Virus record (IMG/VR): IMGVR_UViG_3300025168_013869
Span: 1 to 63,378 of that record
DNA from: a virus
Taxonomy: Duplodnaviria > Caudoviricetes
Length of the DNA: 63,378 nucleotides
Reading direction: 5' to 3' (one strand)
Below the pieces are notes generated by a model that saw only the letters and a list, made by a program, of their open reading frames with translations, was not told where the DNA came from and did no database searches. This document shows positions 399 through 61,940 of the stretch, piece by piece. Both the position numbers and the translations under genes were made by a program. The first letter of the stretch is position 1, and each line of letters starts with the position of its first letter.

Positions 399-1340
399 TT
401 ATCTTCTTTCTATTTCAGCTAATGCCTTTGCACAAGCTGCTCTAAAACTTTCCATGAAATCTTCTACTCTAGGTTCATCTGGTCCTGTATCTTGAAACCA
501 CTCAATTGCATTTCCAAGATCTGCTCCTTCTCTATGATAATTAACATCTGTAAATGATTCTGAAGCAGCTTCCATTGTTCCTATGTTATCAAATGTGATA
601 TCAGGTGCTTCTGCTCCCCATCGTAACATACCAGTATAATCAAAATCATTTGACCACTTATCACCTGGTTCAAATATCCCAGTTCCTGCTGCTTCATTTA
701 CACCTTCGAAAGCTGATTTAGTTGGTTTTCCTTTTAATGCATCTACACATGCTTTATTAAATTTCTTAAACCAACCTCTTGCTTCTGATGGTGATCTATC
801 TTGCATTAGTTCAATTCCCATATTTAGATGACTTGCTATATCATCTGCTTGTTCATCATCTATATCTTCAAATTTATCTGATAGTTTAACTAGGGCATCT
901 TCACCAACATTACTCTTGATAGTTGAACCTATCATCAATAAAGGTTTTAGGCCTCTTGCTAATGCTTCAGTCATAGTTGCACGATCAACACTTTCTGCTC
1001 TAGGTGCATCTTGCATAATTGCATCCATTGCATCTCTATCTAAATCTACACTTGGAAGAACATCTGCTGGAATTGGATGTTTACTATGTAATTGCTTTAC
1101 TATGTTTATCCACTCTTTATCAAATTGAGTACCAGTAGGTGGTAATTGACCTTGGTGCCAGTATACATATGTCATTATATCATCTGGTTGGTATTCCCAC
1201 CAAGTGTTTAAGTCAGGAAACTTCTCTCCTGGTATTCTTGTTCTTAAAGATTTAAGCATAGGATCACTTCCTGGTCCTTCGTTTAAATTTCTTTGCCATT
1301 TCTGATGATTGAATACACCATTTTTTATATAATTACTCAT
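399..1340 (-). CDS. Hypothetical acidic protein, possibly virion-associated
   Basis: 313-aa ORF with AGGGA SD 7 nt upstream; no recognisable catalytic motif. Confidence 0.7.
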   Translation of the reverse strand: MSNYIKNGVFNHQKWQRNLNEGPGSDPMLKSLRTRIPGEKFPDLNTWWEYQPDDIMTYVYWHQGQLPPTGTQFDKEWINIVKQLHSKHPIPADVLPSVDLDRDAMDAIMQDAPRAESVDRATMTEALARGLKPLLMIGSTIKSNVGEDALVKLSDKFEDIDDEQADDIASHLNMGIELMQDRSPSEARGWFKKFNKACVDALKGKPTKSAFEGVNEAAGTGIFEPGDKWSNDFDYTGMLRWGAEAPDITFDNIGTMEAASESFTDVNYHREGADLGNAIEWFQDTGPDEPRVEDFMESFRAACAKALAEIERR

Positions 1341-1352
1341 ATTGTTTTCCCT

Positions 1353-1568
1353 TTATTTCTTTGCAAATTTTTCTGCGCCAGCTATTCCAAAACAGCCTAT
1401 TACAATCCACATAAATGAATTGTATATAATTTCATTGATAACTAAATCTTTCCCTAAATATCCAGTAACTAGGTCCATTAGAGCAAAAATGGTCATTACT
1501 ATAAATGCTATAAAACCTACTACAGTTTTTTCATTCCATTCATTATCATTCTTAAATATACCCCACAT
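1353..1568 (-). CDS. Small two-TM membrane protein (holin-like)
   Basis: Two hydrophobic helices and a basic C-terminus (EKFAKK); AGGA SD. Confidence 0.6.
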   Translation of the reverse strand: MWGIFKNDNEWNEKTVVGFIAFIVMTIFALMDLVTGYLGKDLVINEIIYNSFMWIVIGCFGIAGAEKFAKK

Positions 1569-1580
1569 AGTTTTCCTTTT

Positions 1581-1591
1581 ATATAAATATC
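1581..1591 (-). promoter_or_regulatory. Class B motif GATATTTATAT (putative late promoter)
   Basis: Intergenic, 12 nt upstream of ATG 1568; same motif recurs at 9773, 14678, 38004, 55356 and 61930. Confidence 0.6.
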
Positions 1592-1598
1592 AAGTTAA

Positions 1599-1976
1599 TT
1601 AGAATTCCTCCATTATGATTTCATCTATCTTATCTTGTACTTCTTTCTTTGTTGCTTCCATTTCCATCATAATGTTTGCTTGGTATCTCTTAGTTTCTTT
1701 ACCATTAACAAATACTATAACTGTCGGAGTAACTACTATACTAAAATCTTTTTGCCAATCACCTTTGTCTATTAAAATTCGTTTTGTTCCTACATCAGAT
1801 AAGTCATGTAACCATTCTACATTATTACCTGCATTCCAACTAGCATTAAATTCTACTACACATATATCTTCATCACAAGTATAAGTTTGGCCTTTTGCGG
1901 AACTACATACTAACATTAAAAATAATATTAATATGTAACCGGCCATCATTTTTATCCATGTATAATCTTTTTTCAT
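1599..1976 (-). CDS. Exported thioredoxin-fold protein lacking CxxC
   Basis: N-terminal hydrophobic signal; VVEFNASWN and IVVTPTVIVFVNGKE resemble the thioredoxin FxAxW and PT motifs, but there is no CxxC. Confidence 0.6.
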   Translation of the reverse strand: MKKDYTWIKMMAGYILILFLMLVCSSAKGQTYTCDEDICVVEFNASWNAGNNVEWLHDLSDVGTKRILIDKGDWQKDFSIVVTPTVIVFVNGKETKRYQANIMMEMEATKKEVQDKIDEIIMEEF

Positions 1977-1989
1977 AACTTATCCTTTA

Positions 1990-2274
1990 TTATCTTAATG
2001 CGTCAATTTTATCATTTAACTTCTCAAGTTGTTCTTTAATTTCTTTAACATCTTCTTGAGTTGTCATGATAGTTTGTCTAACCAATTGGTCTTTCATGTC
2101 AAATTCCATTCTTGTTATTTCAGGTGATGGTGGTTCTGGTAATTCTCTAGCTTCGGCTATATCAGCCTGCAACATAAACCACATAGATATTACTGTAGCC
2201 ATTGCAGCTCCTATTCCAATTAAGGTTTTTATTGATACCTTAAATCCACTATCTTCATTTAACTCTTTACTCAT
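1990..2274 (-). CDS. Membrane-anchored coiled-coil protein
   Basis: One TM segment followed by a heptad-rich C-terminus; AGGAG SD. Confidence 0.6.
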   Translation of the reverse strand: MSKELNEDSGFKVSIKTLIGIGAAMATVISMWFMLQADIAEARELPEPPSPEITRMEFDMKDQLVRQTIMTTQEDVKEIKEQLEKLNDKIDALR

Positions 2275-2285
2275 TTACTTTCTCC

Positions 2286-2540
2286 TTAATTCCAAAAGAT
2301 TAGTTTACCTAATATACCTATTAAAACTACCCAAATAGACCATAAAGTCTTTTGAGCACCTTTTCTGAATGTGGTATTTTTATTGACTCTTGCGATGGCA
2401 CCATCATCTGGACCTAACAGTTGTTTCTTTATCATTGTTAAATCGTCTTGCATCTTTACTTGATTGTCTTTAATATGACATACGTCATTCTTTACTACCT
2501 TTATCTCGGTATATAAATTTTCATTTGTTGGTCTTGCCAT
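2286..2540 (-). CDS. Coiled-coil protein with C-terminal TM helix
   Basis: Start moved from 2621 to ATG 2540 (MARPTNENL), immediately after the upstream stop at 2542. Confidence 0.6.
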   Translation of the reverse strand: MARPTNENLYTEIKVVKNDVCHIKDNQVKMQDDLTMIKKQLLGPDDGAIARVNKNTTFRKGAQKTLWSIWVVLIGILGKLIFWN

Positions 2541-2541
2541 C

Positions 2542-3633
2542 TTAAAATACCCTATAATTAATTCCTGCACTAAATCCGTGCCACTTTCTATTCCAATACT
2601 TGTTATAAGTACCTTCTGCAAATATACCTAAATTCTTAGAAAACCAATGTCCAAATATTATTCCTCCAGAATAATCAGACCATTGTCCTTCATTATATTT
2701 ATGATAACTAAATTCTCCACCATCATCATAATGATATGGCATTACATTACCCCATACATGTAACCAACTCTTCTTAGTATAATTATAGTAATCAAACCCA
2801 AGAACCATAGAATATTGTATAGTATTTTTTAATTCTCCTCGTTTCTTTTCAGTATAATCAGATAACATATTTGGTATTGCAACTGCTTCCCAGACTTCTG
2901 TACTTGTTGCAACTGAATTACCTGATGGGTCTAAGTATTCAACTCCACCTTCACCATCAAAGTTAACTGAATATCCTTCTTCAAGTGCTAAAAATGTATA
3001 ATGTAAATTGTTATTTGATAATAGCCATTCCTCTAATGGATCATATCCATAAGGTTCTGATAACCTTTGAGCTGCTCCTATGTTAACAGATAATCCATCT
3101 ACTTTATCAATATTATATCTATATCTTTGTGATGCTTCAAAGTATTCAATATCTGCAAAACCATCTTGAAGGTATTCTACTTTTGCTATAAAGTGTTTCC
3201 AACAGTATTTATTACTACATCCATCATCTGCTATATATCTAATAAAGTGATGTTGATCTAAGTAACGTTCTCCTTCCTGTCTCTTAAGCTTTCCTTCAAA
3301 TAGAAATTCTACATTATTTGACCATCTTCCAACTGTTGCTGCATCTGAGAATGAATTTTCTGTTCCGTTCTTAAATGCTTCTTTAGGTTGATATCCGAAT
3401 TTCTTAAATTTTCTAATTCCTAATATAATAGAATAATCATAAGGAGTTTCTACCACAGAAGTATTTAATCCATTTGTAACTGAATAGACATCTCTATCTG
3501 ATAAAGAGGTTCCTCCATTAACAGCTCCATACACTGTTCCAAATTTGAATATCTTTTTGAAATCAATTTTTTTCTCTTGAGCACTAACTTGTAAGCTAAT
3601 TACTGCAAGTATTATTATTATTAGTTTTTTCAT
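2542..3633 (-). CDS. Predicted outer-membrane beta-barrel protein with Sec signal peptide
   Basis: Likely start ATG 3633 (MKKLIIIILAVISLQVSA/Q); alternating aromatic beta-strands; C-terminal GINYRVF with terminal Phe, resembling a BAM beta-signal. Confidence 0.6.
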   Translation of the reverse strand: MKKLIIIILAVISLQVSAQEKKIDFKKIFKFGTVYGAVNGGTSLSDRDVYSVTNGLNTSVVETPYDYSIILGIRKFKKFGYQPKEAFKNGTENSFSDAATVGRWSNNVEFLFEGKLKRQEGERYLDQHHFIRYIADDGCSNKYCWKHFIAKVEYLQDGFADIEYFEASQRYRYNIDKVDGLSVNIGAAQRLSEPYGYDPLEEWLLSNNNLHYTFLALEEGYSVNFDGEGGVEYLDPSGNSVATSTEVWEAVAIPNMLSDYTEKKRGELKNTIQYSMVLGFDYYNYTKKSWLHVWGNVMPYHYDDGGEFSYHKYNEGQWSDYSGGIIFGHWFSKNLGIFAEGTYNKYWNRKWHGFSAGINYRVF

Positions 3634-3637
3634 ATTA

Positions 3638-3943
3638 TTAGTTCCAATGGTTATCAAATATTGCTTTACCAGTTTTCTTAAACGCTTCCCAGTTTTTCCA
3701 AAATGTAGATCTTGGATCTAATACATCTTTTTGTACTGCATCATACATAGCATTAGCTTCTTTTTCAAATAAAGGTGCATTAGGTTTGTTTCTATGTTTT
3801 TTAGATACTGCTGCTAATTTCTGTACTGCCTTGTCCAATGTTACTGCAGCCTTAATTACTCTTTCATGAGCCTTCTGTATTACAATTGCATCTTTAACTT
3901 GCCATTGTTGACTAGCTTCAGTTAATAAGTCTTTTAATTTCAT
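3638..3943 (-). CDS. Hypothetical protein with KLKxLL-x-E leader
   Basis: Starts MKLKDLLTEA; ATGA overlap with the upstream gene. Confidence 0.7.
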   Translation of the reverse strand: MKLKDLLTEASQQWQVKDAIVIQKAHERVIKAAVTLDKAVQKLAAVSKKHRNKPNAPLFEKEANAMYDAVQKDVLDPRSTFWKNWEAFKKTGKAIFDNHWN

Positions 3944-6900
3944 TGTTTAATCACCTTTTTACTATATCTACTACTATTATAAAGTATAACCATATTATAT
4001 ATACCATTCGGTAACTTGGATAAATCTAAGCGTTTAGTATTTCGTTCACTAACCACCTTAGACCCTATCATATCATACAATTCTACTTCTATTTCTAATC
4101 TTGTTTCTATTGTTACTATATCCTTAGTTGGATTAGGATAAACTACAATTCCTAATGCTGATATATCTTCTATTGAAGTTGGCCAACCTAATTGACAATA
4201 GTCATACATTGATTGACATGATGCATCCCAATCATTAGTACAACAAAAATCATCAACGTCTATTACCCAAGCATAACAACCATCATTTAACCAATAAGGA
4301 ATTCCAGGTCCTCCATAACAACCTGCATCATATAAACATGCTAATGTATCAGATACATTTGCAGCTGGATTATAATTATAAGCTGCCACATCTGTACATC
4401 CTGATACTGCTGTTATACATGTATTAACTGGTTCATAACATGCATTTGGATCATAGTTCAATGCAGTTGCATCCATACAACCTGAGATGTAACAACATGT
4501 ATTATCTGATGTATTTGCTAATGGATTGTAATTTAATGCTGATACATCATTACATCCATATATGAAAGGAATACAATTTCCATTATCCACATTTGCTAAT
4601 GCATTATAATTAAACATTATACTATCCATACATCCATATATTGGATTGATACATGTACCATCATCTGTATTAGCATTAGCATTATAATTTAATGCATTTG
4701 GATTAGTACATCCATATATAAACGGCACACAAGTATTATTATCTGTATTGGCTAATGGATTGTAATTGAATTGAGTTGAGTCTGTACATCCGTATATTGG
4801 ATTGATACAAGAACCATCATCTGTATTTGCTAGTAAATTGTAATTTAACGCTACAGGGTTTGTACATCCATACACATATCCTACACATGAATTATTATCT
4901 GTATTTGCTAAAGGATCATAATTAAATGAGGTTGAATCTGTACACCCATATACAAATGGAATACATGAATTATTATCTGTATTTGCATTTTGGTTATAGT
5001 TCCACATTGTATTGTCCATACATCCATATATAAATGGAACACAACTACCATTGTCTGTATTTGCTAAAGGATCATAATTAAATTGAGTTGCATCTGTACA
5101 ACCTAATACTGGATATATACATCCTATATTAATATTTGCTAATGAATCATAGTTAAGTGCTGTTGGATCAGTACAACCTAACACTTCTGCAATACATGTT
5201 CCATTATCTGTATTGGCATTTACATCGTAATTAAATGCTAAAGGATCTATACATCCTTCAATAACTGGAATACAACCTACACTTGTATTTGCTGTTATAT
5301 CATAATTAAATGCTGATGTATCTGTACAACCATATACAAATGGAATACAATTACCGTCATCAGTATTAGCAGCTGCATTATAATTAAATTGTGTAATGTC
5401 CATGCAACCATTAATAACTGGTATACATGATGATTGATCATTTGAATTTGCTGATGGATTAAAGTTAAATGCTGTAGTATCCATACACCCAATTACTTCT
5501 GCAATACATCCTCCATCATCTACATTTGCAGTTGGATCATAATTAAATGCTAAATCATTTGTACATCCTAACACTATTGGTATACATGTACTAGGCATAT
5601 TAGCTAATGGATCATAATTAAATGCTAATGCATCCATACAACCAATTATACCATCTGTACAGTAGTCACCACATTCAGGTACATTATTATACTTGAACGG
5701 AAATTTCTTTATAGGATCTAACCAAGCATTTGTTCCTCCTGATAATGTAGTATCTCCTTCAGGTCCTATTAAATAGAATCCATTTTGATCTGCTGTTGAT
5801 GATGAATTACCTGGAGCAAAGAACATTATATCTACTGGACTTAATGCACTTAAACTAATTGTAAATGTTTGTTGTCCGCCATCATATGGTCCCATCATAA
5901 ATGGACCGAATGTTGTAGTATCTTGTAATACTCCTAACCATGCTCCAAACCAACCATCTTGAGCTGCATCTGTAATTACTAATGTATAATCACAAGTTGG
6001 AATTATATCCATTGTGTTTGCTGATGAATTATAATCTGGTGAAGTAGGATCTATACAACCTAATACTACTGGTGTTAAACAAGTACTATCATCTTGTGTT
6101 GCTTGAGGATTGTATTCTGTAAATCCGGGAGTTGTACATCCTAAGATGGCATTAACAGTACATGGAGCAACAGTATATAGTACTGACGTATCCGTTCCAA
6201 AATTAGCATTAGGAGATTGTATTGATAATATAGTATCACCACAAAGAGTTTGTACTAAAGCACTACCATCTACTCCTCCGTAACATGAACCACAAAGCCC
6301 ATCACCAAAATTATCCATTAATGTAAATTCTACAACAGTACCATTAGGTACACATACTTCAGTTATAACTGTTTCACCTTCTCCTGAATATAATGAAGAC
6401 ACAGCTAATATATTACCTGTTGTGTCTGCTAATTCCCAACTAGTTTCACCAAAATAAGTATCCGTCATTATTGTCACTACTATGTTGGATTCTCCAGCTG
6501 CGCAATTTGCAGGTGGAGCTTGACATGAACTATCATCTGAATTGGCCCATGGATTATAATTTAATGCAGTTGGATCTGTACAACCAGGTATACAATCAGG
6601 AGTTGTAATTACTAAAGTGTCTGTATAAGTTGAATCGGTTAACATACCTACAAAATAGTATGTCATGTTAGGTTGCTGGTTTTGGTAAATTAATGCTGTA
6701 TTTGACCAATTAGAAGGATAAGGATACCATTGTGATCCTAAATTATAAAGATCTGTTGATCTAGTATATGAAGCCATTCTACAATTAGGATTCGGCATAT
6801 TAGACCAATTATATTTAACTGTGGCAGTAGCTCCTGTACAATAAGTTTCTACATAGAAAGTATCTAAACCATTACATGGTGGATAGATGCAAGAACCATC

Positions 6901-7341
6901 ATCAGTTGTTGCAGTATTATCATAGTTAGTTGCTATTGAATCTGTACACCCTGATAATGGTGGTGCACATGGTTGTATATTGACTAATGTATCTAATTGA
7001 AAGAACATCATCCATAAAGGATCATAGTTTAATATTTGACCTTGGCAATCATTTTGCATCTTAAACCAAGCTGGATTGTTTGAATTCCAACCATCACCAT
7101 AAGAATCATTTAATGTAATAACATAATTACCTGAGTTAATGCTAATTGTAGTATCTAAATATTGATATGCAATTGTTGGTTGATGAAAAATTGCTGTATC
7201 GCCATTAACAGTATCTTCAACCATAAACCAATTGGACTCTTGTGGAGCCCAACTATCATATTGTACTTTGAATTGTACCCAACTATCTTGCGCTAATAAC
7301 ATTGTTGGCAATAAAGCCAGTAATAATATAAACTTCTTCAT
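3940..7341 (-). CDS. Secreted Cys-rich repeat protein with T9SS type A C-terminal sorting domain
   Basis: Signal peptide MKKFILLLALLPTMLLA/Q; about 21 GC(T/M)D...NY(N/D)PxAxxDDGSC repeats; C-terminal VYPNPTKDIVTI...LDLSKLPNGIY...KKVIKQ is the typical Por/T9SS CTD signature. Confidence 0.85.
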   Translation of the reverse strand: MKKFILLLALLPTMLLAQDSWVQFKVQYDSWAPQESNWFMVEDTVNGDTAIFHQPTIAYQYLDTTISINSGNYVITLNDSYGDGWNSNNPAWFKMQNDCQGQILNYDPLWMMFFQLDTLVNIQPCAPPLSGCTDSIATNYDNTATTDDGSCIYPPCNGLDTFYVETYCTGATATVKYNWSNMPNPNCRMASYTRSTDLYNLGSQWYPYPSNWSNTALIYQNQQPNMTYYFVGMLTDSTYTDTLVITTPDCIPGCTDPTALNYNPWANSDDSSCQAPPANCAAGESNIVVTIMTDTYFGETSWELADTTGNILAVSSLYSGEGETVITEVCVPNGTVVEFTLMDNFGDGLCGSCYGGVDGSALVQTLCGDTILSIQSPNANFGTDTSVLYTVAPCTVNAILGCTTPGFTEYNPQATQDDSTCLTPVVLGCIDPTSPDYNSSANTMDIIPTCDYTLVITDAAQDGWFGAWLGVLQDTTTFGPFMMGPYDGGQQTFTISLSALSPVDIMFFAPGNSSSTADQNGFYLIGPEGDTTLSGGTNAWLDPIKKFPFKYNNVPECGDYCTDGIIGCMDALAFNYDPLANMPSTCIPIVLGCTNDLAFNYDPTANVDDGGCIAEVIGCMDTTAFNFNPSANSNDQSSCIPVINGCMDITQFNYNAAANTDDGNCIPFVYGCTDTSAFNYDITANTSVGCIPVIEGCIDPLAFNYDVNANTDNGTCIAEVLGCTDPTALNYDSLANINIGCIYPVLGCTDATQFNYDPLANTDNGSCVPFIYGCMDNTMWNYNQNANTDNNSCIPFVYGCTDSTSFNYDPLANTDNNSCVGYVYGCTNPVALNYNLLANTDDGSCINPIYGCTDSTQFNYNPLANTDNNTCVPFIYGCTNPNALNYNANANTDDGTCINPIYGCMDSIMFNYNALANVDNGNCIPFIYGCNDVSALNYNPLANTSDNTCCYISGCMDATALNYDPNACYEPVNTCITAVSGCTDVAAYNYNPAANVSDTLACLYDAGCYGGPGIPYWLNDGCYAWVIDVDDFCCTNDWDASCQSMYDYCQLGWPTSIEDISALGIVVYPNPTKDIVTIETRLEIEVELYDMIGSKVVSERNTKRLDLSKLPNGIYNMVILYNSSRYSKKVIKQ
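4336..5643 (-). repeat. Tandem array of 17 ~26-aa GCTD-type repeats within the T9SS-cargo gene
   Basis: Counted in the translation from GCMDALAFNY to GCTDVAAYNY...DTLAC; four more dispersed copies lie further N-terminal. Confidence 0.85.
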
Positions 7342-7361
7342 ATAGATGTCTCCTAATAGAT

Positions 7362-7661: not shown

Positions 7662-7681
7662 TTTAATGTCCTTTAAATTAA

Positions 7682-8841: not shown

Positions 8842-8842
8842 A

Positions 8843-53327: not shown

Positions 53328-53353
53328 AACTTTTATTTTTTAATTAATATATA

Positions 53354-53385
53354 TTAATATAACAATTTTTTATCGAACTTCCAAA
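53354..53385 (-). promoter_or_regulatory. Class A promoter TTTG-N20-TATATTAA
   Basis: Conserved spacing; shares upstream GCCAAAAGATTTGG with the site at 11578-11609. Confidence 0.75.
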
Positions 53386-53412
53386 TCTTTTGGCTACTTT
53401 TTTTAAGAAAAG

Positions 53413-55269
53413 TTAAACTATTTCACATGCACCACCTGCACATGCTAATTCACCTTTAAGATCTGTTTCATCTTCTGTTTCAATTATATTTGATAAATTA
53501 ACAGATGTTAATGTTTCCATTAATCTATTGTACTCCTCTTCTGTAATATCTTCAAAGGGGGCTTGTGTATATGTACCTCCATCATATGGTAATACTGCTA
53601 ATCCATTATAATAATTTTTATTATCCCACATCCATTCACCTGCTGCATCCCATTCATGATCTCTCAACGAAATTGTAGCAGATACATTATGAGTATTTGA
53701 TCCAGCTCTATGGCCTGGCTTGATCCATTCTTGAGCAACTTTCTTAACTCTCTCTAACAATTGAAATGGAGATTCTGTTCTCATAATAGCCCCTGTTGGT
53801 GCTTTTTGTGGTATACTAATGACTGCAGTATCATGGGCTCTAAAGAATTCATCTTCAACTAATTCTGGATGGGTTTCGTTTAGGTATTTATATATTGATT
53901 CATTCTTACCTACTCTAATTCTTCTAATGTAATAATCATTATGCCATGCATGAATTCCAGATGATGTTCCTAATGTTAAAGAAGTTGTTCCTGCAGGTTT
54001 TACTGTAGTTGCTCTTGCTGTTTTATTTATTCCAATTAAGTCTGCTACTCTCGCATTCTCTTCTTTTACTACCTTAGCTGCAGATTTCATATCATATCCT
54101 AATACTGTACCACTTCCTATTCCTGTCATTGAGACTCCTATTAAAGCATCCTTCTCTGTAGTTCTTTGCCATACAGGTCTCAAATAATGGAACTCTGTAT
54201 ATCCTGCTTGTAATGTACCAATAAATGCTGCAGCTTTTACTCTTGATTCAAAATCTTCTTGAGATTCTATATTTGAAACATTTACTTCACAAAGGTTACA
54301 GAATTGAAATGGTCGTAATGCTATTTCACAACATGGATTAGTTCCCCAGTCTTTATCATTTGATAAATAAATTCCAGGTTCACCTGCTCCGGATAATTCA
54401 ACTCTTTTCCATATATCTAAGAAAAATTCTTTTGTAATTTTATGCCTCATCAATACAGCTGAATTATTAGATCTACCTCTTTGTGGATTAAGTTCCCACC
54501 AATTACCTGTTTTACATGAAATCATTTCCTCATCATGTGCGCTAAATAAACTAATCAACGCTGCTCTTCTAATACCTCCTGCTAATACAGCATCTGCTAT
54601 ATGACATACTATATCATGTACTTCCAATGTAGATAATTTATCACCATCTTGCTTTTGTTTTAACATACCTTCAATCTTAACCAAACATTCTTTCAAAGGT
54701 TGTGGTCCTGGGGCTTTTCCTCCTGAGGTCACAAGCCTTGCTCCTTTAGCTCTAATATCTGTATAATCAAATTTAATTGAAGATCCATCGAAAAAGTATG
54801 ACTTCATTAAAATTTTAACAGCATCTGCCCATCCTTCAATTGAATCTGCAATTAAAAATCTTCTACTTCTATTTGGGTTAGGTTTTCTAATTTCTGGTAG
54901 TTCGTCTACATGATGTTTCTGTACAGAATATCCAACTCCAGTACCACCTAGCAATAAAAACATTGTTTCAGAAAATGCTCTCCAATCGTCTATTGGAAGA
55001 TATGCACAATTATAAACTCTATTTGGAGAGATTTCAATTGGTTTTCCTGCAAATTGCATACTTCTCATTGAAGGAAGTATCTTTTTATTATGAACTAGTT
55101 TATATGCTGACATGATCTCATCTTTAAGGTCAGGATATTTTTTAAGATGCATCTTTCTATTCCTATTAACTAATTCTTTCCAAGTTTCTCGTCTATTCTT
55201 ACTTGGAATGTATTTTGCATACTTCATGTAGACTGTAATCTCTGAGAGTATTTTTGTAGATATATTCAT
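53413..55269 (-). CDS. nrdJ: Class II (adenosylcobalamin-dependent) ribonucleotide reductase, monomeric RTPR type
   Basis: YNCA, GTGVG, GGIRRAALI, GTNPCCEI, TTVKPAGT, C-terminal CAGGACEI; no nrdB/F partner in the window. Confidence 0.9.
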   Translation of the reverse strand: MNISTKILSEITVYMKYAKYIPSKNRRETWKELVNRNRKMHLKKYPDLKDEIMSAYKLVHNKKILPSMRSMQFAGKPIEISPNRVYNCAYLPIDDWRAFSETMFLLLGGTGVGYSVQKHHVDELPEIRKPNPNRSRRFLIADSIEGWADAVKILMKSYFFDGSSIKFDYTDIRAKGARLVTSGGKAPGPQPLKECLVKIEGMLKQKQDGDKLSTLEVHDIVCHIADAVLAGGIRRAALISLFSAHDEEMISCKTGNWWELNPQRGRSNNSAVLMRHKITKEFFLDIWKRVELSGAGEPGIYLSNDKDWGTNPCCEIALRPFQFCNLCEVNVSNIESQEDFESRVKAAAFIGTLQAGYTEFHYLRPVWQRTTEKDALIGVSMTGIGSGTVLGYDMKSAAKVVKEENARVADLIGINKTARATTVKPAGTTSLTLGTSSGIHAWHNDYYIRRIRVGKNESIYKYLNETHPELVEDEFFRAHDTAVISIPQKAPTGAIMRTESPFQLLERVKKVAQEWIKPGHRAGSNTHNVSATISLRDHEWDAAGEWMWDNKNYYNGLAVLPYDGGTYTQAPFEDITEEEYNRLMETLTSVNLSNIIETEDETDLKGELACAGGACEIV

Positions 55270-55355
55270 TGCGTTTTCGCCTTTTTTATTAAAATTGAGT
55301 GTATAAAACGTAAAAAATCGTAACCTTCATTGTTAACGTTTCATCTTATTATCAT

Positions 55356-55366
55356 ATATAAATATG
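55356..55366 (-). promoter_or_regulatory. Class B motif CATATTTATAT
   Basis: Intergenic, upstream of nrdJ. Confidence 0.55.
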
Positions 55367-55415
55367 GTGTTGGCATGCATTCATGAACGCTTTTGATGAA
55401 AAAATATTTGCTTTT

Positions 55416-56771
55416 TTACTCAAAACCTTCATTTGTTATTTCTTGGTATTTGCGTGCTAGTAATTTTCTCGTAAGCTCATTGCCGCCATCCATTTGCTTC
55501 TGTGTATCCTTCCCTCCTACTGATGTCTCTGCATATAAATGAAATTGTCCATTTGATGTATTCATTTTACTTGGTAATGTAATACCATCTGGACCAAATC
55601 TATTTTTAATAACATGCCATCTTCCAGTTCCTGCTAACTTATCTGCTACCTTTCTTGATAATGATAATACAAAGTCAGCAACCATTACTTTACCATATGA
55701 TTCTGATATCTTACTTGCATCAATAATATCTTCTTCCAATGCTGATCTATTTGCTTGAGATGCAGTCCAAACAGGTATATCATATTCTCCGGCCATACCT
55801 CTAAGGTCTTCATAAATACCTTCTAACTCATGCCTTTTTTCTTGTCCATGACCTCTTAACAAATCCGCGTAATCAACTATTATACAATCTGGTTTCTTGT
55901 CCTGCATTATACATTTTTCAACATGGGCTCTAATACCCATTACAGATACAGACTTTGTCGGATAATGTTTAATAATTAACTCACCTTTTAGTTTTGCTAA
56001 TTGTTCTTTAATATCTTCTTTATAATGTTTAAGATTCTGATTTGCAATACCTGTTATAACCGAATCATATCTTAACCCAACATATGCTTGATTTAACTCT
56101 AATGTATAATGAACAACTGTTTTACCTTGTTTAACTAAATGGGCACCTACATTCATTAATGCCCAAGACTTACCAATACCAGCTGGTGCAACCATTACTC
56201 CTAGTTCACCTTTGCCTAAACCTCCATCTGTTAATTCATTAATAACATCCCATGGAGTAGGTTGTACATCTCTAACTGCATCTGTATACCGTTCATCTAT
56301 TTCCTCCATATAATCATGCCCAATATCTTTATCAGCTCCGGCCTTTAAGGCTTCATCAACTCTAGCTTTAATGCCATCATAATCTCCATTTTTTAGTAAC
56401 TCTACAGATCCTAAAATAGCTTTTTTGATTTCTTGGTTCTTACAGAAGTCCATTGCCTGATCTTTGATGTATGCTAAATCAGGTGATTCTGTATACTTCC
56501 AAGCATCTTTCAGATGAGCAATTATTTGTTCTTTTAATATATCATGATCAACCTTTTCAAGTTTTACTTTCATCACTTCCAAAGTAGGAGATGATTTATA
56601 CTCAGTAAAATATTCTAAGATTGTATCTACAATCCAACTGTTAGCATCCGATTCAAAATATGATGATAACATGATATCTGAAATTTGTTGTAGAAATGAT
56701 TTATCTACTAGTAATGCTGTTATTACCTTTATCTGAAATGCGTACCCGTACGAGCTTAATCTATCTGTCAT
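55416..56771 (-). CDS. Replicative DnaB-family helicase (T4 gp41-like)
   Basis: APAGIGKS Walker A, YTLEL, IIVDYAD, WTASQANR, KNRFG. Confidence 0.95.
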   Translation of the reverse strand: MTDRLSSYGYAFQIKVITALLVDKSFLQQISDIMLSSYFESDANSWIVDTILEYFTEYKSSPTLEVMKVKLEKVDHDILKEQIIAHLKDAWKYTESPDLAYIKDQAMDFCKNQEIKKAILGSVELLKNGDYDGIKARVDEALKAGADKDIGHDYMEEIDERYTDAVRDVQPTPWDVINELTDGGLGKGELGVMVAPAGIGKSWALMNVGAHLVKQGKTVVHYTLELNQAYVGLRYDSVITGIANQNLKHYKEDIKEQLAKLKGELIIKHYPTKSVSVMGIRAHVEKCIMQDKKPDCIIVDYADLLRGHGQEKRHELEGIYEDLRGMAGEYDIPVWTASQANRSALEEDIIDASKISESYGKVMVADFVLSLSRKVADKLAGTGRWHVIKNRFGPDGITLPSKMNTSNGQFHLYAETSVGGKDTQKQMDGGNELTRKLLARKYQEITNEGFE

Positions 56772-56774
56772 ACT

Positions 56775-56806
56775 TTAATATAATAATTTTTTTTCTAATA
56801 TCCTAA
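56775..56806 (-). promoter_or_regulatory. Class A promoter TTAG-N20-TATATTAA (probably leaderless transcript)
   Basis: ATG 56771 begins 3 nt after the -7 box. Confidence 0.7.
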
Positions 56807-57873
56807 TCTTTTCGCATCTGAATAAATGCGTTAAGAGTATTGAAGGAAGTTGCTAACCAAGTATCTAAATCTTTTATGATTGTATACATTTTATCTGCCA
56901 TGAACATCTTCTTGAATTGTAATGTATTTAATTTGTCAACAGGACCTTTTACCTTATCATGTATCATTAACTTTATAGATCCTGCAATATCAACCTCTTT
57001 GAGTTGCATAAGATTATGGTTCAAGTCAACCTGGTCCTCTGATTCTACTACGGACTTATAGATTTTGTAGCGGCCTTCTTCTGCTCCATCTTTTGCATGA
57101 TTTATAATTTCATGTATCTGTACTTCTCTATTTTCTGTAACCATTGGAAAGAATTTCTTAAGTGATTTCAATGCAACACCTTTCACTCCAGGAATATTAT
57201 CTGATTTATCACCTAGGAATGTTCTATATAATAAATAGTTAGAAGCATTAATTCCAAATTCTTCTTGCATTAATCTTGGATTATACATTTTCTTTTTAAT
57301 TGGACTCCAAACAGAAATTCTATTATTTACTAATTGTAAAAAATCTCTATCAGTTGATACAATTTGAACTTTTTGATTTGGCTCTGTATATACTTCATTT
57401 GCAATATATGCTATTGCATCATCAGCTTCGATATTATCAACTGATAATAATGTTACTGGTAAACAATCTAAGTATTCTATTAGTCTACCAAATTGCTTTT
57501 TCATAGAATCAGATTCATCTGTTAATGATGCAAATTCTTTATATCTATTAAATGCAGTTTTAACAGCTCTATTTGCTTTATAATCTGGAAAAATCTTTTT
57601 TCTACGTTTAGAACCTCCTTTACCATCAAAACAAACAATGACTCTAGTAGGTTTTAATAATCGAATATTAGCAGCTAGTGATCTTAAAAATCCTGTTACT
57701 CCTCCAATGTGATCTCCATCATCATTCAATGCAGGTACTGCGGAGAATACTCTAATGAAGGTATTAAGACCATCGAGTATCAATATGTTACTATTAATAT
57801 CCGATGGCCTACCCTCTTGATGTTCCTTGACAACGTCTTGGAAAAATTTCTGAAGTTGTTTATGATTCTTCAC
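56803..57873 (-). CDS. 5'-3' exonuclease/flap endonuclease (T4 RNase H-like)
   Basis: ILDGLN, FDGKGG, YKANR, EADDAI, STDRDFLQL, GDKSDNIPGVKG. Confidence 0.95.
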   Translation of the reverse strand: MKNHKQLQKFFQDVVKEHQEGRPSDINSNILILDGLNTFIRVFSAVPALNDDGDHIGGVTGFLRSLAANIRLLKPTRVIVCFDGKGGSKRRKKIFPDYKANRAVKTAFNRYKEFASLTDESDSMKKQFGRLIEYLDCLPVTLLSVDNIEADDAIAYIANEVYTEPNQKVQIVSTDRDFLQLVNNRISVWSPIKKKMYNPRLMQEEFGINASNYLLYRTFLGDKSDNIPGVKGVALKSLKKFFPMVTENREVQIHEIINHAKDGAEEGRYKIYKSVVESEDQVDLNHNLMQLKEVDIAGSIKLMIHDKVKGPVDKLNTLQFKKMFMADKMYTIIKDLDTWLATSFNTLNAFIQMRKD

Positions 57874-59014
57874 CTACAAAGTCTTCTTCAATTTCAACAT
57901 CATCAATTCCAATATTATCACCAGGTTTATATGTTAATATATACGCATCACAAATACCTTTGTATATCTCATCCTTCAATTCTGGATCGGCTTCAAGTTT
58001 ACCTTGAAAGTCTTTTGATAAGAATTTTACAGCTGTACCATCTGCTTTTGTATATGTATACCATGCTCCTGCTATACTCACCAGTTTATATTGCTTCATA
58101 ACATTTAACCAGCCACCAAAGTTATCTATTCCACTTTCAAAGTAAATATCATAATCGATAGTCTTTAAAGGTGGACCCATTCTATTTTTAATAACTTGGC
58201 ATCTAGTTTTGATACCAACAGTTTGATCAACCCCATCCTTCTTGACTTTGATCTGTCCTACTGATTTCAATCGTAACCGTACTGATGAGTGAAATGGAAT
58301 TGCTTTTCCTCCACTAGTTGTCCATGGATCACCAAATGCTACTCCTAGCCTTGAACGAAGCTGATTAGTAAACAATAATGCAACTTTTTGTCTACCAAGT
58401 AGATTTGTAATCTTACGCATACCTTTTGATAATATAATAGCCTTGGATGTTGCCCAACCTGCTTTATCATAATCATCTGCTTGTTCAATCTTTGTTGATG
58501 CACCCATTACTGAGTCTACTACAATTGTTACCAATCTATCCTTACTAGATTTTCTAACTGATTCTATAATACTTTCAATTGCTTCAAAGATATCTTCAAT
58601 AGTATCTAATGGAACATAAAGCATTTTTTCTAAATCTAATCCAATTGCTTCAAGGAATTCTCTACTGACTGCATTTTCTGTATCAATATAAACTGCTAAG
58701 CCTCCTTGCTTTTGTGTATCTGCTAAAGCATGAGCTGCCAATAATGATTTACCTGATGCTTCTAATCCTGTTATCTCAGTTATTCTTCCAACTGGAAATC
58801 CTCCTACAGGTCTATTTGCAATAGCCAAGTCTAACATGGATGAACCTGATCCTACCCATCCTCTAACTTCTGATGGTGAATCCGTATCTCCATCTAAGAA
58901 ATATGCAACTTTATAGTTAGTATGTTTGAATTTCTTATTAAGACCTTCTCTAATATTTTCTCCTAAGGCCGTTGCGAGCTCGTCTGCTTGTTCTGCTTTA
59001 CTTTTCTTTGCCAT
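57860..59014 (-). CDS. RecA/UvsX recombinase
   Basis: GLEASGKS, YIDTENA, VVDSV, FTNQLR, TSGGKAIPFHSSVRL, IKNR. Confidence 0.96.
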   Translation of the reverse strand: MAKKSKAEQADELATALGENIREGLNKKFKHTNYKVAYFLDGDTDSPSEVRGWVGSGSSMLDLAIANRPVGGFPVGRITEITGLEASGKSLLAAHALADTQKQGGLAVYIDTENAVSREFLEAIGLDLEKMLYVPLDTIEDIFEAIESIIESVRKSSKDRLVTIVVDSVMGASTKIEQADDYDKAGWATSKAIILSKGMRKITNLLGRQKVALLFTNQLRSRLGVAFGDPWTTSGGKAIPFHSSVRLRLKSVGQIKVKKDGVDQTVGIKTRCQVIKNRMGPPLKTIDYDIYFESGIDNFGGWLNVMKQYKLVSIAGAWYTYTKADGTAVKFLSKDFQGKLEADPELKDEIYKGICDAYILTYKPGDNIGIDDVEIEEDFVGEES

Positions 59015-59027
59015 ATATAACCTCTAT

Positions 59028-59804
59028 TTATTCGTTAAACAAATCATCAAATGCTGCTGATACATCATCTACTTTATTAACACTTGCCGGTGCTTTTGTT
59101 TCTTGCTTAACTGGTTCTGGTGCTGTTGATGATGGATCTACTGTGTCTGATCCTTCTGGGTTTAACCAAATTGCTAATGCTTCTTTTAACTCATCATAAG
59201 ATGGTTCTTTAAAGATATCAGATAAATTAGGTTGACTATCAGTTGCTGCTTTTGAAACATTACTATCTTCTGATAATGCTGTAACATTAGGTTTAACTCT
59301 AATAGTAGTTTTTGGAAAGTTACCTGCTCCTTCTGCTGGAGTAAATTCAACTAAGATATCTCTTCCATTCATTGGATCTGTAATATCACCATAATCTGGA
59401 TCTGCTATTACTCCTAAAAGTTCTTGATAAACTAGTTTACCAAAGCCCCAAAATTTAACACCTTCTGATTCTTTACCTCTTACTAATACCGGAGCATAAG
59501 TTCTCATTTTAGGTTCCATTTTCTTTCCTAATTTCCATTCATCTGAATTACCAGAAGATTTTAATTTTTCAGAAAATTCTACTACTGGATCTGGTCTACC
59601 ATGAGTTACTGGTGATAAGAAGTTTTTCTTACCTAAGTCATAATGAAAGTACAATTCATTGAATGGATTGTCTTTGTTGTGCTGATAAGGTACGATTCTG
59701 ATTATTTGTTTGCCTGGTTCAGGCTTCCATAAGGTTGACGTTCTGTTGTTCGTCGTTTGTAATTGATTAAGCTTTGCCTTAATCGCGTCTAAGTTAATTG
59801 CCAT
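59028..59804 (-). CDS. Single-stranded DNA-binding protein (T4 gp32-like)
   Basis: LWKP..G...IRIVP, DITDPMNGRD, acidic tail AAFDDLFNE; adjacent to the recombinase. Confidence 0.85.
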   Translation of the reverse strand: MAINLDAIKAKLNQLQTTNNRTSTLWKPEPGKQIIRIVPYQHNKDNPFNELYFHYDLGKKNFLSPVTHGRPDPVVEFSEKLKSSGNSDEWKLGKKMEPKMRTYAPVLVRGKESEGVKFWGFGKLVYQELLGVIADPDYGDITDPMNGRDILVEFTPAEGAGNFPKTTIRVKPNVTALSEDSNVSKAATDSQPNLSDIFKEPSYDELKEALAIWLNPEGSDTVDPSSTAPEPVKQETKAPASVNKVDDVSAAFDDLFNE

Positions 59805-59837: not shown

Positions 59838-59869
59838 TTAATATAACAACTTTATTTCATTTAACCTAA
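59838..59869 (-). promoter_or_regulatory. Class A promoter TTAG-N20-TATATTAA (proximal SSB promoter)
   Basis: Conserved spacing. Confidence 0.7.
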
Positions 59870-59943: not shown

Positions 59944-59963
59944 TAATCCTTTTTATTTATATA

Positions 59964-59995
59964 TAAATATAATGAAAATATTTCATATATCCTAA
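59964..59995 (-). promoter_or_regulatory. Class A promoter TTAG-N20-TATATTTA (distal SSB promoter)
   Basis: Conserved spacing. Confidence 0.7.
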
Positions 59996-60643
59996 TTATA
60001 CTACTTTAAATCTAGCACCTTGTATTCTGTTTCCTCGCTTTTTGACTGCAAATTTTATGTCTTTTACTATATAGTCTTCTAAACTATATTCTGTTGCACC
60101 ACCACCTAAATCAAATTCAAAAACTTTTTCCTTGAATGGATGGTTCCATTTACACCATGATTCGTCAATTGTAAAACCACCACGATCATGATTATATTCT
60201 GCCATCATTTCGATAGTCATTATACCATCAATGTTTATTTTTTCACCATCTTTCACCTCTTGGTGCTCCTCATCTGTTAGAACTTTGATGAATATTCGAA
60301 CAATACTTAAAAGTTGATTATCATCACTTCCACTTCCATGGTATCGAGGTTGTACTGTTCTGGAACGCACATACTGGACCCTAGACGTGAATGGGAAATG
60401 TACTATATTGTCTATATAATTACCATCTTTCTGCATCAGATTTCCATCTTTATCAAATATAGTTGAAGCTTCCATCTTATGCTTTTTCAATTCTTTTTCA
60501 AGACTTTTTTCAAAGTCATTCCAAAAGTCAAAGGGTTTGTGTATATCGATTAGTTCTCCTTCACTTGATTCGTTTAATAATTTAGAATCATTGCTTCTTG
60601 GTTTACCTTCAAACAATTGTTTATATTTTTTTCCTAAATTCAT
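59996..60643 (-). CDS. Hypothetical protein with shared 25-aa MNLGKKY leader
   Basis: MNLGKKYKQLFEGKPRSNDSKLLNE followed by a unique body; AGGA SD. Confidence 0.75.
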   Translation of the reverse strand: MNLGKKYKQLFEGKPRSNDSKLLNESSEGELIDIHKPFDFWNDFEKSLEKELKKHKMEASTIFDKDGNLMQKDGNYIDNIVHFPFTSRVQYVRSRTVQPRYHGSGSDDNQLLSIVRIFIKVLTDEEHQEVKDGEKINIDGIMTIEMMAEYNHDRGGFTIDESWCKWNHPFKEKVFEFDLGGGATEYSLEDYIVKDIKFAVKKRGNRIQGARFKVV

Positions 60644-60671
60644 GTTATTTATCCTAATTTATTTAGATATA

Positions 60672-61040
60672 TTACCAATCATCTGAATAATCATCTTCTT
60701 CTAATTCATACTCATAATCTACTACACCTAGTATAGGTTCATATAATGGTCCATCATTTTCTAAATCTTCTCCTTCCAAAGAGATAGACGTCATGCCGTC
60801 ATCTGTAGTTAAGACCCAATTAAAAGTAGCTCCTTCTATTTTAATAGTTCCATTTGCATCTCTATCCTTGCCACTAACAGATCCGTCTTCTATTGAGATT
60901 ACCTTTTCTAATTGTTCGTAACTCATTTTATCCGCTGCCTTAAGTGCAGCATCTACTAATGTATTTTCTTTAAGTAAATTAGAATCATTGCTTCTTGCTT
61001 TACCTTCAAATAATTGTTTGTATTTTTTTCCTAAGTTCAT
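60672..61040 (-). CDS. Acidic hypothetical protein with shared 25-aa MNLGKKY leader
   Basis: MNLGKKYKQLFEGKARSNDSNLLKE followed by a unique body. Confidence 0.75.
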   Translation of the reverse strand: MNLGKKYKQLFEGKARSNDSNLLKENTLVDAALKAADKMSYEQLEKVISIEDGSVSGKDRDANGTIKIEGATFNWVLTTDDGMTSISLEGEDLENDGPLYEPILGVVDYEYELEEDDYSDDW

Positions 61041-61052
61041 TTTTTCTTCTTT

Positions 61053-61472
61053 TTATAAGTATTCTAATTCATCTTCAGACCAACTTCCTAATTCAGATTC
61101 TACTTGTTTTGGATCTAATCCGCCCTTCTTTAAGGCATCTATAGAAGCTTTATCAAAAATAAATGTATACTCATCATCATATTTTGTTTTATCTATTTTA
61201 GCTGTTAAGAATTCCTCAGAACCTAAAGCTGGTCCTACTGTGTCTTTTCTAATTCCAGATCCAACTTGAAACTCTCCTTGTTGTAGGAATATTTGAACAT
61301 CTGATCCATCTTCTGCAGCAGCATAATAGTCTTCAAACATGTTAGTCATTTTATCCATATCTAACACATCTTCGTAATCTAATTCAAAACTTCTATATTC
61401 TTTAAGTAAACTAGAATCATTGCTTCTTGTTTTACCTTCAAATAATTGTTTGTATTTTTTTCCTAAATTCAT
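61053..61472 (-). CDS. Acidic hypothetical protein with shared 25-aa MNLGKKY leader
   Basis: Start placed at ATG 61472 by analogy with the paralogous leaders; upstream ATG 61511, coupled to the previous stop, is an alternative. Confidence 0.7.
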   Translation of the reverse strand: MNLGKKYKQLFEGKTRSNDSSLLKEYRSFELDYEDVLDMDKMTNMFEDYYAAAEDGSDVQIFLQQGEFQVGSGIRKDTVGPALGSEEFLTAKIDKTKYDDEYTFIFDKASIDALKKGGLDPKQVESELGSWSEDELEYL

Positions 61473-61510
61473 TTTTACTTCTTCTTTTTTATAATGCTCT
61501 GAATACCCCA

Positions 61511-61903
61511 TTATACATCAAATCTTTTATAAAGTTCTAATACAATTCTACGGTATCCATCATTATTAGTTAGCAATAAACTATTTTTATAATTTTCCCA
61601 TGCAATAATAAATGTTTTATCTAGAACTCCATTATTTACGGCTTTGATAATTTCATTCAATGCATTAACTGTATACAATGTATTTGTATCTTTCTTTCTA
61701 TGTATTAGAATTGTATTTGGAGTTTTTTTATAATCTTCTTTTGGGTTAACATTATATGTAACATAAACATCATTTGGTTTATCCGCATCATTAAATACAA
61801 AGATTTTCTTCTCAACAATAGTATAGCTTTGTTTAACATAATCTATTATAAGATTTAAGTCTTTTCTATGTGCAAATGTACATAATAAGTTTGTTCTAGC
61901 CAA
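61511..61903 (-). CDS. Hypothetical protein
   Basis: TTG start with AGGAAGGGA SD; 130 aa. Confidence 0.7.
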   Translation of the reverse strand: MARTNLLCTFAHRKDLNLIIDYVKQSYTIVEKKIFVFNDADKPNDVYVTYNVNPKEDYKKTPNTILIHRKKDTNTLYTVNALNEIIKAVNNGVLDKTFIIAWENYKNSLLLTNNDGYRRIVLELYKRFDV

Positions 61904-61929
61904 AATGATCCCTTCCTGTTTTATTTCTA

Positions 61930-61940
61930 TTATAAATATC
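61930..61940 (-). promoter_or_regulatory. Class B motif GATATTTATAA
   Basis: Intergenic, upstream of TTG 61903. Confidence 0.55.

Follow-up and report, generated by a model that had tools for sequence, protein, structure and literature searches.

Why would a phage whose host appears to belong to the Bacteroidota place Shine–Dalgarno (SD) sites in front of one class of its genes and not of another, when sequestration of the anti-SD on the ribosome is described for the whole class Bacteroidia (PMC9976891, PMC13000457)? The question is raised by the IMG/VR virus record IMGVR_UViG_3300025168_013869, which was analysed in its entirety (63,378 bp, a single contig; here the window, or G000). An earlier note on this DNA had linked two styles of translation initiation to two classes of promoters, with SD-less starts behind early-type and SD-led starts behind late-type promoters. 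This division is borne out, and related records with genuine virion genes show it again. The best explanation as a whole combines host-type early promoters, a second class of late promoters, SD sites that would be read late in infection and a phage-encoded ribosomal protein, bS21, as the best candidate for enabling that reading. It is held tentatively, with a confidence somewhat short of even.

The window is a fragment, with a CheckV completeness of 36% of the genome. Its minus strand holds all long open reading frames (ORFs) and all 82 called genes, obtained by greedy ORF calling under a rule of our own (ORFs of at least 40 aa, start at the first ATG, greedy by length, dominant strand). Because SD information was not used in this procedure, errors in the starts should favour neither promoter class. 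Many relatives are present in IMG/VR, and whole records were taken of G001-G006, G011, G012 and G014. PolB is 80% identical to that of the window in G001 (129.6 kb, without a virion module), 79% in G002 (127.4 kb), 72% in G003 (95 kb), 73% in G004 (85.5 kb) and 51% in G005 (181.6 kb, complete with a CheckV value of 100%). The PolB tree reads (G005,(G003,(G004,(window,(G002,G001))))), with SH-aLRT values of 94-99. G002 is colinear with the window and reaches further upstream into the virion module, where PHROGs, applied to 132 of its 138 ORFs (the six crossing piece borders were excluded), identifies portal, prohead protease, tail sheath, tube, baseplate and fibre genes.

Promoter classes and the starts behind them

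Two recurrent promoter-like motifs, class A and class B, are found in the intergenic regions of the window and of G002. Class A consists of a -33 TTTGG element (or TTAGG; TTTGCC in G001), a spacer of 15-21 nt and a TTATATT box at -7, and it precedes replication, nucleotide and many accessory genes. The primary promoter of Bacteroidota is described as -33 TTTG / -7 TAnnTTTG, with a nearly invariant G at -5 (PMC6847099). The -33 element and the spacing of class A match the primary-sigma consensus so described, in the window as well as in its relatives. The -7 box, TAtaTT(T/A)(A/T), fits the host consensus at TA and TTT, but the invariant G is replaced by A or T. Class A is in this respect a resemblance to the primary-sigma promoter and not a strict match.

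Class B is a 9-mer, ATATTTAT[AT], a single AT-rich box without a conserved upstream element. Its coding-strand matches are intergenic in 9 of 17 cases in the window (intergenic share 2.8%), 25 of 33 in G001 (5.6%), 24 of 30 in G002 (4.6%) and 39 of 43 in G005 (5.9%). Fifteen of the 24 intergenic sites in G002 lie in the virion half, ahead of portal, sheath, tube and baseplate genes. Confinement of the 9-mer to intergenic DNA is seen family-wide, lineages with different early promoters included (the same 39/43 matches in G005, 23/30 in G006, 19/25 in G011, 12/14 in G014; loci L097-L106, L199-L208 and L215-L217).

From gene content and by analogy with phage T4, class A may be read as early, served by the host polymerase, and class B as late. 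T4 uses host sigma-70 promoters early, and late promoters of the form TATAAATA together with gp55, gp33 and gp45. The likeness lies in host-type promoters ahead of early or replication genes, in a single AT-rich -10-like box without a -35 element ahead of virion genes, and in the replication genes of the window, which are T4-like. The late box, however, is the class B 9-mer instead of the T4 motif, the early promoters are of the Bacteroidota -33/-7 type, and T4 puts SDs on all gene classes. A late sigma factor of the gp55 or gp33 kind was not named by PHROGs among the 82 proteins of the window or the searched ORFs of G002, both records being fragments.

For each start, the duplex energy (dG) of positions -20 to -2 was calculated against the 16S tail motif ACCUCCUUU, and an SD was called at dG <= -5 kcal/mol. 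The background rate, from other ATGs and random coding-strand positions, is 9-14%. Under a strict promoter pattern, first genes in the window carry an SD in 0 of 4 cases behind class A and 5 of 8 behind class B (p=0.08). A refined pattern, which also admits TTAGG and CTAGG and gives class A priority at overlaps, changes these numbers to 0/8 and 5/6 (p=0.003). Across G000-G004, the strict pattern gives 4/41 behind class A vs 46/90 behind class B (p=4.6e-6); the former equals background, and the latter departs from a background of 11-14% with a binomial p of 4e-18. Pooling six clade records under the refined pattern gives 11/77 vs 57/108 (Fisher 5e-8), p-values that overstate independence as the records are mutually related. 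The result is robust to thresholds from -4 to -7 and to a plain motif rule. Scoring of anti-SD pairing by promoter class, which the earlier note had suggested, hence shows a significant enrichment behind class B in the window and in its relatives.

The same division is visible by region. SD starts make up 10 of 19 in the 0-14.7 kb block of the window vs 9 of 59 in the remainder (Fisher p=0.002). In G002 they account for 24 of 49 starts in the virion module, 4 of 27 in replication, 7 of 20 in the sugar cluster and 14 of 37 in the distal block; virion and replication genes differ with a Mann-Whitney p of 2e-5 and a Fisher p of 0.003. A GGA/GAG peak at -13 to -8 is present in the virion genes of G002, while the profile is flat in its replication genes and in G005. 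Most often, 6-7 nt separate the paired stretch from the ATG, and the commonest cores are AAGGA (65) and AGGAG (43). Among the 57 SD-led first genes behind class B, the SD lies 6.6 +/- 1.2 nt from the ATG and 16.6 +/- 7.2 nt from the promoter. SDs are also found at genes without a promoter of their own, namely at 56/186 coupled and 33/88 uncoupled genes in class B units, and at 17/113 and 11/58, respectively, in class A units. The fixed distance to the ATG and the SDs at promoter-less genes show that the motif belongs to the start codon, not to the promoter. Moreover, orthologues with 35-80% protein identity retain SDs even where the neighbouring bases differ (e.g., 14644, 2274, 1976 and 1568). 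They are ordinary sites of 5-7 nt, with energies of -5 to -9 kcal/mol, and their geometry, enrichment and persistence suggest that they are functional.

Twenty starts of the window reach the threshold. Of those listed earlier as SD-led, 11 of the 12 that are ORF starts pass (1340, 1568, 1976, 2274, 7341, 7661, 8841, 9745, 14644, 37972 and 61903). The remaining one, 60643, is weak (TAGGAT, dG -4.0), and position 8457, listed as well, proved to be an internal in-frame ATG of ORF 8023-8841. A perfect AGGAGG lies 7 nt upstream of this internal ATG (8455-8473, minus strand), which could be a second initiation site or a matter of chance. All seven starts listed as SD-less (11553, 27935, 53327, 59804, 39832, 56771 and 47111) stay above the threshold, at +3.3 to -3.6, and two exceptions are as they had been described (42609, dG -5.8; nrdJ at 55269, dG -4.4). 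Further SD-bearing starts, beyond that list, are 59014 (UvsX), 47523, 36518, 35175, 21460, 17930, 12826 and 12072.

While the two classes of the earlier note are real as motifs, as the intergenic concentration of class B indicates, the class of 27935 and 39832 is less clear-cut than it implied, because both combine a -33 box with a class B 9-mer. These two promoters, whose -7 box spells the 9-mer, may be active both early and late. The leaderless starts proposed at 39832 and 56771 agree with the spacing, since the -7 boxes end 5 nt before the ATG, and both mRNAs are probably leaderless. At the start in G002 that corresponds to 39832, the ATG begins exactly at the transcription-start position given by Baez et al. 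(PMC6847099).

Two leaders have a composition of their own. The 191-nt gap before the gp32-like gene (59805-59995, minus strand) contains a class B box, a short hairpin-like inverted repeat, a run of AAATTAAAA-type repeats and then a class A promoter, and its first part is almost identical in G001. The nrdJ leader of 146 nt (55270-55415, minus strand) lies behind a class B box. It contains a hairpin followed by TTTTTAC that recurs in G001 and G002 with changed stem letters and may be a regulatory RNA element.

bS21 in the clade and SD use in head regions

A bS21 gene was not found in the window by PHROGs, Pfam or a six-frame profile search, in agreement with what had been claimed before. PF01165 scores above its cut-off in G002, G003, G004 and G012, and bS21 is also present in G006, G011, G013, G014 and G015. 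PF01165 found no such gene in G001 or in the complete G005. G001 was set aside as a counter-case; its record holds no virion module. The suggestion that bS21 might lie outside the window is supported, as the carriers G002, G003, G004 and G012 bracket the window on the PolB tree. Since the lineage of the window nests among bS21 carriers, the missing two thirds of its genome would be expected to hold this gene. Homologues of bS18, bS6 and S1, which had been proposed as further search targets, were each found in 0 of 5 records (G000-G004).

In G002-G004, the bS21 gene falls in the stretch that separates the prohead protease from the capsid gene, and it shares their strand. The proteins of the clade comprise 82-91 aa and have an N-terminal extension of about 20 residues with a conserved [IL]PG. 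Start signals of the gene were compared in 14 distinct clade sequences: SDs (0/14, dG >= -2.2) and class B sites (0/14) are lacking, whereas a class A-type promoter is present in 13 of 14, ending 17-30 nt before the ATG. By these signals, the bS21 gene is an early-type island within the SD-rich, putatively late head module. Metagenome protein sets contain 60 close homologues of 66-99 aa, and tblastn of the clade bS21 against cultured phages gave a single match, in a Vibrio jumbo phage (42% identity over 72% of the query). A separate lineage (L183:13525-13878 and G006, as L197) has a longer bS21, of 117 aa or as a 150-aa open frame, whose N-terminal extension is basic and repetitive.

The relation between bS21 and SD use can be followed across head regions. 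With a prohead-protease alignment, 80 head-region loci were retrieved, 20 of which hold both the protease and the capsid gene, so that the bS21 slot is covered. In the 17 loci with bS21, 206 of 356 starts have an SD (37-77% per locus), vs 6 of 60 in the three loci without it (L151, L154 and L173). L172 was counted as a carrier; its gene was found by Pfam and an iterated profile, having been missed by the first three-sequence profile. Neither a 13-bit Pfam match in G008 nor a profile match (E=0.009) in a 261-aa ORF of L154 was accepted as bS21. The loci L121/L122, L126/L127 and L157/L159 are near-duplicates. G005, which has both promoter motifs and no bS21, shows SDs at 15 of 251 starts, below its own background of 10.7%, and at 3 of 33 after class B. 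Head regions without bS21, like the complete G005, possess both promoter types and almost no SD sites. Judged by its spread across the family, the putative late promoter predates the SD split.

How the late sites may be read

In Flavobacterium johnsoniae, the anti-SD is held in a pocket formed by bS21, bS18 and bS6 (PMC7797042, PMC9976891, PMC13000453, PMC13000457). Ribosomes of this species read SDs when bS21 is absent or the platform pocket is weakened (PMC13000457, PMC9976891). For wild-type ribosomes, initiation is reported to require SD pairing stronger than -13 kcal/mol and to be lost with one mismatch (PMC13000457). Since such replete ribosomes ignore SDs as short as those of the phage, functional phage SDs would mean that the anti-SD must be freed in infected cells.

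According to the preferred explanation, class A would act as a host-like -33/-7 promoter, with leaders that are short, A-rich or absent and lack an SD, in the way the host initiates translation, and class B would be the late promoter ahead of virion genes. The SDs of class B units (AAGGA or AGGAG, about 6-7 nt before the ATG) would be kept by selection for pairing with the 16S anti-SD, which late in infection would be freed on the ribosomes of the infected cell. The phage-encoded bS21 of the clade, expressed from an early-type promoter via an SD-less leader and equipped with its conserved N-terminal extension, would be the best candidate for making or keeping the anti-SD free. As all genes are on one strand, read-through transcripts are likely, and an SD gate would keep late genes silent on them. 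A ribosome switch is plausible on these grounds; we infer the timing of expression, the presence of bS21 in the window's genome and all steps on the ribosome. Unmasking of the anti-SD through loss of the tyrosine equivalent to Tyr54 was rejected for the clade, which keeps this residue, and the N-terminal extension is the sole clade-specific feature of bS21 that can be put forward as a candidate for anti-SD release. A more specific version, in which an early phage bS21 replaces the host protein by virtue of this extension and frees the anti-SD, with the short SDs as a private late start signal that gates and boosts late proteins, is possible but rather doubtful.

A number of points weigh against the preferred explanation. 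The window itself lacks bS21. The equivalent of Tyr54 (F. johnsoniae numbering; aligned to chain 7jil_z) is kept in 14 of 14 clade bS21 sequences, while tyrosine is absent from this column in 8 more distant bS21 sequences aligned, and Chen et al. (2022) interpret the retained residue as a continued block on the anti-SD (PMC9723584). An SD is missing from about half of the class B genes, G003 is less clean (4 of 9 class A genes with an SD), and the SD state of orthologues is weakly conserved (Fisher p = 0.11, 0.39, 0.053 and 0.18 for the window vs G001, G002, G003 and G004, respectively). Gene starts rest on our own first-ATG rule, and the refined class A pattern was written after the sites of the window had been seen. 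In a quick, poorly resolved protease tree, the SD-poor head regions consist of a G005-like clade of 6, the pair L163 and L193, and the long-branch L144. As these are few clades, the contrast between bS21 and SD use rests on one to three evolutionary events. Finally, G006 carries bS21 yet has SDs in its replication genes too, so bS21 is not always paired with an early/late split.

Instead of acting on the ribosome, the phage may profit from what the host already offers. Its late mRNAs could use a natural pool of bS21-free ribosomes with a free anti-SD, a pool that could grow once host bS21 synthesis stops after infection, and the phage bS21 would then serve another purpose. F. johnsoniae ribosomes without bS21 indeed translate SD-led mRNA better (PMC9976891, PMC13000457), and the phage bS21 of the clade retains the masking tyrosine. 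A natural pool, however, leaves unexplained why SDs are lost in bS21-less relatives with the same promoter types (G005 and the three head loci), and why the bS21 gene is an SD-less, early-type island in the late head module. We regard this account as unlikely, although it is the most serious of the competitors.

A second possibility concerns the host, which might not be SD-blind at all. SDs would then raise the output of abundant late proteins, and early host-type promoters would give leaderless mRNAs or very short leaders. That the host belongs to the Bacteroidota, as had been supposed, is supported by the -33/-7-type early promoters and by a 1133-aa protein (3940-7341, minus strand) with a type IX secretion sorting domain at its end (PF18962; E=5e-12, 46 bits, cut-off 27). 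The type IX secretion system (T9SS) is a system of Bacteroidota. The gene belongs to a class B unit and starts behind a strong SD, and orthologous ORFs of about 1000-1150 aa ending in PF18962 are present in G001 and G002; a phage protein sent through the host T9SS late in infection would be unusual. The domain is absent from G003-G006, G011, G012, G014 and G015, most of which are fragments, so that this says little on their hosts. Both lines of evidence place the host to phylum level only, which leaves room for a lineage that uses SDs, and at several class A sites a mere 5-7 nt lie between the end of the site and the ATG, suggesting leaderless mRNAs. Most class A leaders, by contrast, measure 16-60 nt and still lack an SD, the sequestration of the anti-SD is described as class-wide in Bacteroidia (PMC9976891, PMC13000457), and the sister clade (G005) has almost no SDs with the same promoter types. 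A host of this kind is distinctly unlikely.

Thirdly, the SDs may be a relic of a virion module that descended from, or was exchanged with, SD-using T4-like ancestors, not yet decayed and with little present function. In more remote relatives SDs abound, be it in the head module or everywhere, as illustrated by G006 and by the other half of the protease tree (49 rows), where bS21 forms lack the tyrosine and have SDs of their own; these distant phages may infect other phyla. The weak conservation of the SD state among orthologues points in the same direction. A relic is nevertheless improbable, because SDs also precede non-virion, lineage-specific genes behind class B (10/19 in the 0-14.7 kb block), persist with changed flanks in diverged orthologues, keep a tight spacing, and can be lost completely, as the G005-like clade shows. 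Lastly, a reader other than the 16S rRNA, with the purine motif as the binding site of a phage protein or as part of the initially transcribed region of the late promoter, is highly improbable, for although the motif often follows closely behind a class B box, its distance is fixed to the ATG and variable to the promoter, it occurs at coupled genes without a nearby promoter, and it is the exact complement of the 16S tail motif.

Genes of the window, known systems and significance

The best explanation for the gene content is that the window represents about one third of the genome of a T4-like myophage with a Bacteroidota host. A T4-type replication set is present (PolB, gp32-like single-stranded DNA-binding protein (SSB), UvsX, clamp loader and DnaB-type helicase; PHROG E-values of 1e-14 to 1e-190), and PHROGs additionally names exonucleases, NrdJ, QueD, QueE, GTP cyclohydrolase, GroES and GroEL. 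The block from 38027 to 59804 contains the gp32-like SSB, UvsX, exonuclease, DnaB, NrdJ, QueD/QueE/FolE, GroES, PolB, clamp loader and GroEL. None of the 82 proteins was named by PHROGs as capsid, portal, terminase or tail. Pfam, run on the 67 of 82 proteins without a clear PHROG function, reveals a large sugar-biosynthesis cluster at 14.9-38 kb. The nearest cultured phage by PolB is Microcystis phage Mel-JY01, with 43% identity. All 2684 matching records are below 60% identity, and megablast of positions 1-25000 against cultured phages gave no match. The features of the window are collected in Table 1.

Table 1. Promoter-like sites, SD sites, gene blocks and named genes of the window
Feature	Position	Strand	Remarks
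Class A site (-33 TTTGG, -7 TTATATT)	53356..53385	(-)	before start 53327; no SD
Class A site	50076..50105	(-)	before PolB start 50039; no SD
Class A site	47136..47165	(-)	before start 47111; AAGG only, 2 nt from ATG
Class A site	11580..11609	(-)	before ligase start 11553; no SD, dG +2.0
Class A site, TTAGG -33 box	59840..59869	(-)	before gp32-like start 59804; no SD
Class A site, TTAGG box	56777..56806	(-)	-7 box ends 5 nt before start 56771
Class A site, TTAGG box	39838..39867	(-)	-7 box ends 5 nt before start 39832; contains class B 9-mer (39834-39842)
Class A-like site, CTAGG box	27958..27987	(-)	before NeuB-like start 27935; no SD; contains class B 9-mer (27954-27962)
Class B 9-mer	61931..61939	(-)	before start 61903
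Class B 9-mer	59962..59970	(-)	distal end of 191-nt gap before gp32-like gene
Class B 9-mer	55357..55365	(-)	87 nt before nrdJ start 55269 (weak AAGG, dG -4.4)
Class B 9-mer	38005..38013	(-)	before glycosyltransferase start 37972
Class B 9-mer	14679..14687	(-)	before endolysin-like start 14644
Class B 9-mer	9774..9782	(-)	before start 9745
Class B 9-mer	1582..1590	(-)	before start 1568
SD AGGAAGG	61911..61917	(-)	7 nt before TTG start 61903, dG -7.0
SD AGGAG	37979..37983	(-)	6 nt before start 37972, dG -7.3
SD AGGAG	36526..36530	(-)	7 nt before overlapping start 36518, dG -6.9
SD AAAGGAG	14653..14659	(-)	8 nt before start 14644, dG -8.8
SD AAGGGA	9753..9758	(-)	7 nt before start 9745, dG -5.5
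SD AAGGGA	8848..8853	(-)	6 nt before start 8841, dG -5.5
SD AAAGGA	7669..7674	(-)	7 nt before start 7661, dG -5.4
SD AGGAG	7350..7354	(-)	8 nt before start 7341 (T9SS-tailed protein), dG -7.3
SD AAGGAG	2282..2287	(-)	7 nt before start 2274, dG -8.2
SD AAAGGA	1983..1988	(-)	6 nt before start 1976, dG -5.5
SD AAAGGA	1574..1579	(-)	5 nt before start 1568, dG -5.8
SD AAGGGA	1348..1353	(-)	7 nt before start 1340, dG -5.5
Genes upstream of gp32			SD 1/4 starts
Replication and nucleotide-metabolism block	38027..59804	(-)	SD 3/27 starts, background level
Sugar/glycosyltransferase cluster	14703..37972	(-)	SD 5/28 starts, clustered behind class B site 38005-38013
Endolysin-like gene, ligase, T9SS-tailed 1133-aa protein, unknown genes	399..14644	(-)	SD 10/19 starts
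gp32-like SSB	59028-59804	(-)	PHROGs
UvsX	57860-59014	(-)	PHROGs
DnaB-type helicase	55416-56771	(-)	PHROGs
PolB	47556-50039	(-)	PHROGs
Clamp loader	42620-43549 and 40257-40703	(-)	PHROGs
Endolysin-like gene	14009-14644	(-)	PHROGs
ATP-dependent ligase	10261-11553	(-)	PHROGs

Some neighbouring genes (all on the minus strand) form sets of their own. Within the sugar cluster of about 23 kb, the stretch 23554-28769 encodes a NeuB-like synthase (26466-27935), a cytidylyltransferase (23554-24177) and a GT29 sialyltransferase-family protein (27990-28769), and looks like a phage-encoded nonulosonic-acid pathway. At 50270-53018, QueD, QueE and GTP cyclohydrolase I adjoin a phosphoribosyltransferase, with a DUF1599 'nucleotide modification' protein nearby (39868-40260); this gene set suggests DNA modification of the 7-deazaguanine type. 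GroEL (40705-42357) and GroES (51434-51739) are both encoded by the phage, about 9 kb apart, and both are kept in G002.

The closest parallel to this phage family is found in the bS21-encoding myophages of freshwater Bacteroidetes, in which bS21 likewise neighbours the genes for prohead protease, capsid and portal, the host is inferred to belong to the Bacteroidota and the equivalent of Tyr54 is kept (Chen et al., 2022; PMC9723584). These authors proposed that the phage protein is incorporated into host ribosomes, to the advantage of late phage transcripts. Their bS21 gene lies on the strand opposite to the virion genes, whereas here both share a strand; the parts of that paper drawn on here name no mRNA feature for the selection and contain no analysis of SDs on phage genes (PMC9723584). 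In the present family, SDs mark the late-type but not the early-type genes, bS21 itself is preceded by early-type signals, and the window is without bS21. A second parallel is the autoregulation of rpsU in F. johnsoniae, where ribosomes with a freed anti-SD prefer SD-led mRNA and mRNAs are chosen through ribosome composition, the same logic as is proposed here (PMC7797042, PMC9976891, PMC13000453, PMC13000457). That system, as described, involves one host gene with an unusually strong SD of 13 bp, whereas in the phages ordinary sites of 5-7 nt are found at dozens of genes. Pelagibacter phage HTVC008M and other viruses likewise include T4-like marine phages that encode bS21, and viral bS21 can enter foreign ribosomes (Mizuno et al., 2019, as cited in PMC9976891). 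In the source passages concerned, their hosts are not described as SD-blind and no class-specific use of SDs is reported. A literature search turned up no description of SDs divided between early and late genes in Bacteroidota phages. A preprint describes Cellulophaga phages as devoid of the SD feature.

What is added here is that SD use is tied cleanly to two explicit promoter classes, that the bS21 gene itself has early-type, SD-less signals, and that the pattern is visible in a fragment without virion genes and without bS21. In practice, gene callers tuned to SD-less Bacteroidota will misplace late starts in these phages, and SD-tuned callers will misplace early ones. More broadly, the observations touch on two questions: what leads so many aquatic phages to carry a bS21 gene, and why the Bacteroidia have retained an anti-SD of use to little more than one host gene. 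This phage family alone answers neither, but it makes both testable. If the proposed reading is true, phage bS21 would gain a function, and the conserved, nearly idle anti-SD of the Bacteroidia would gain a role in infection.

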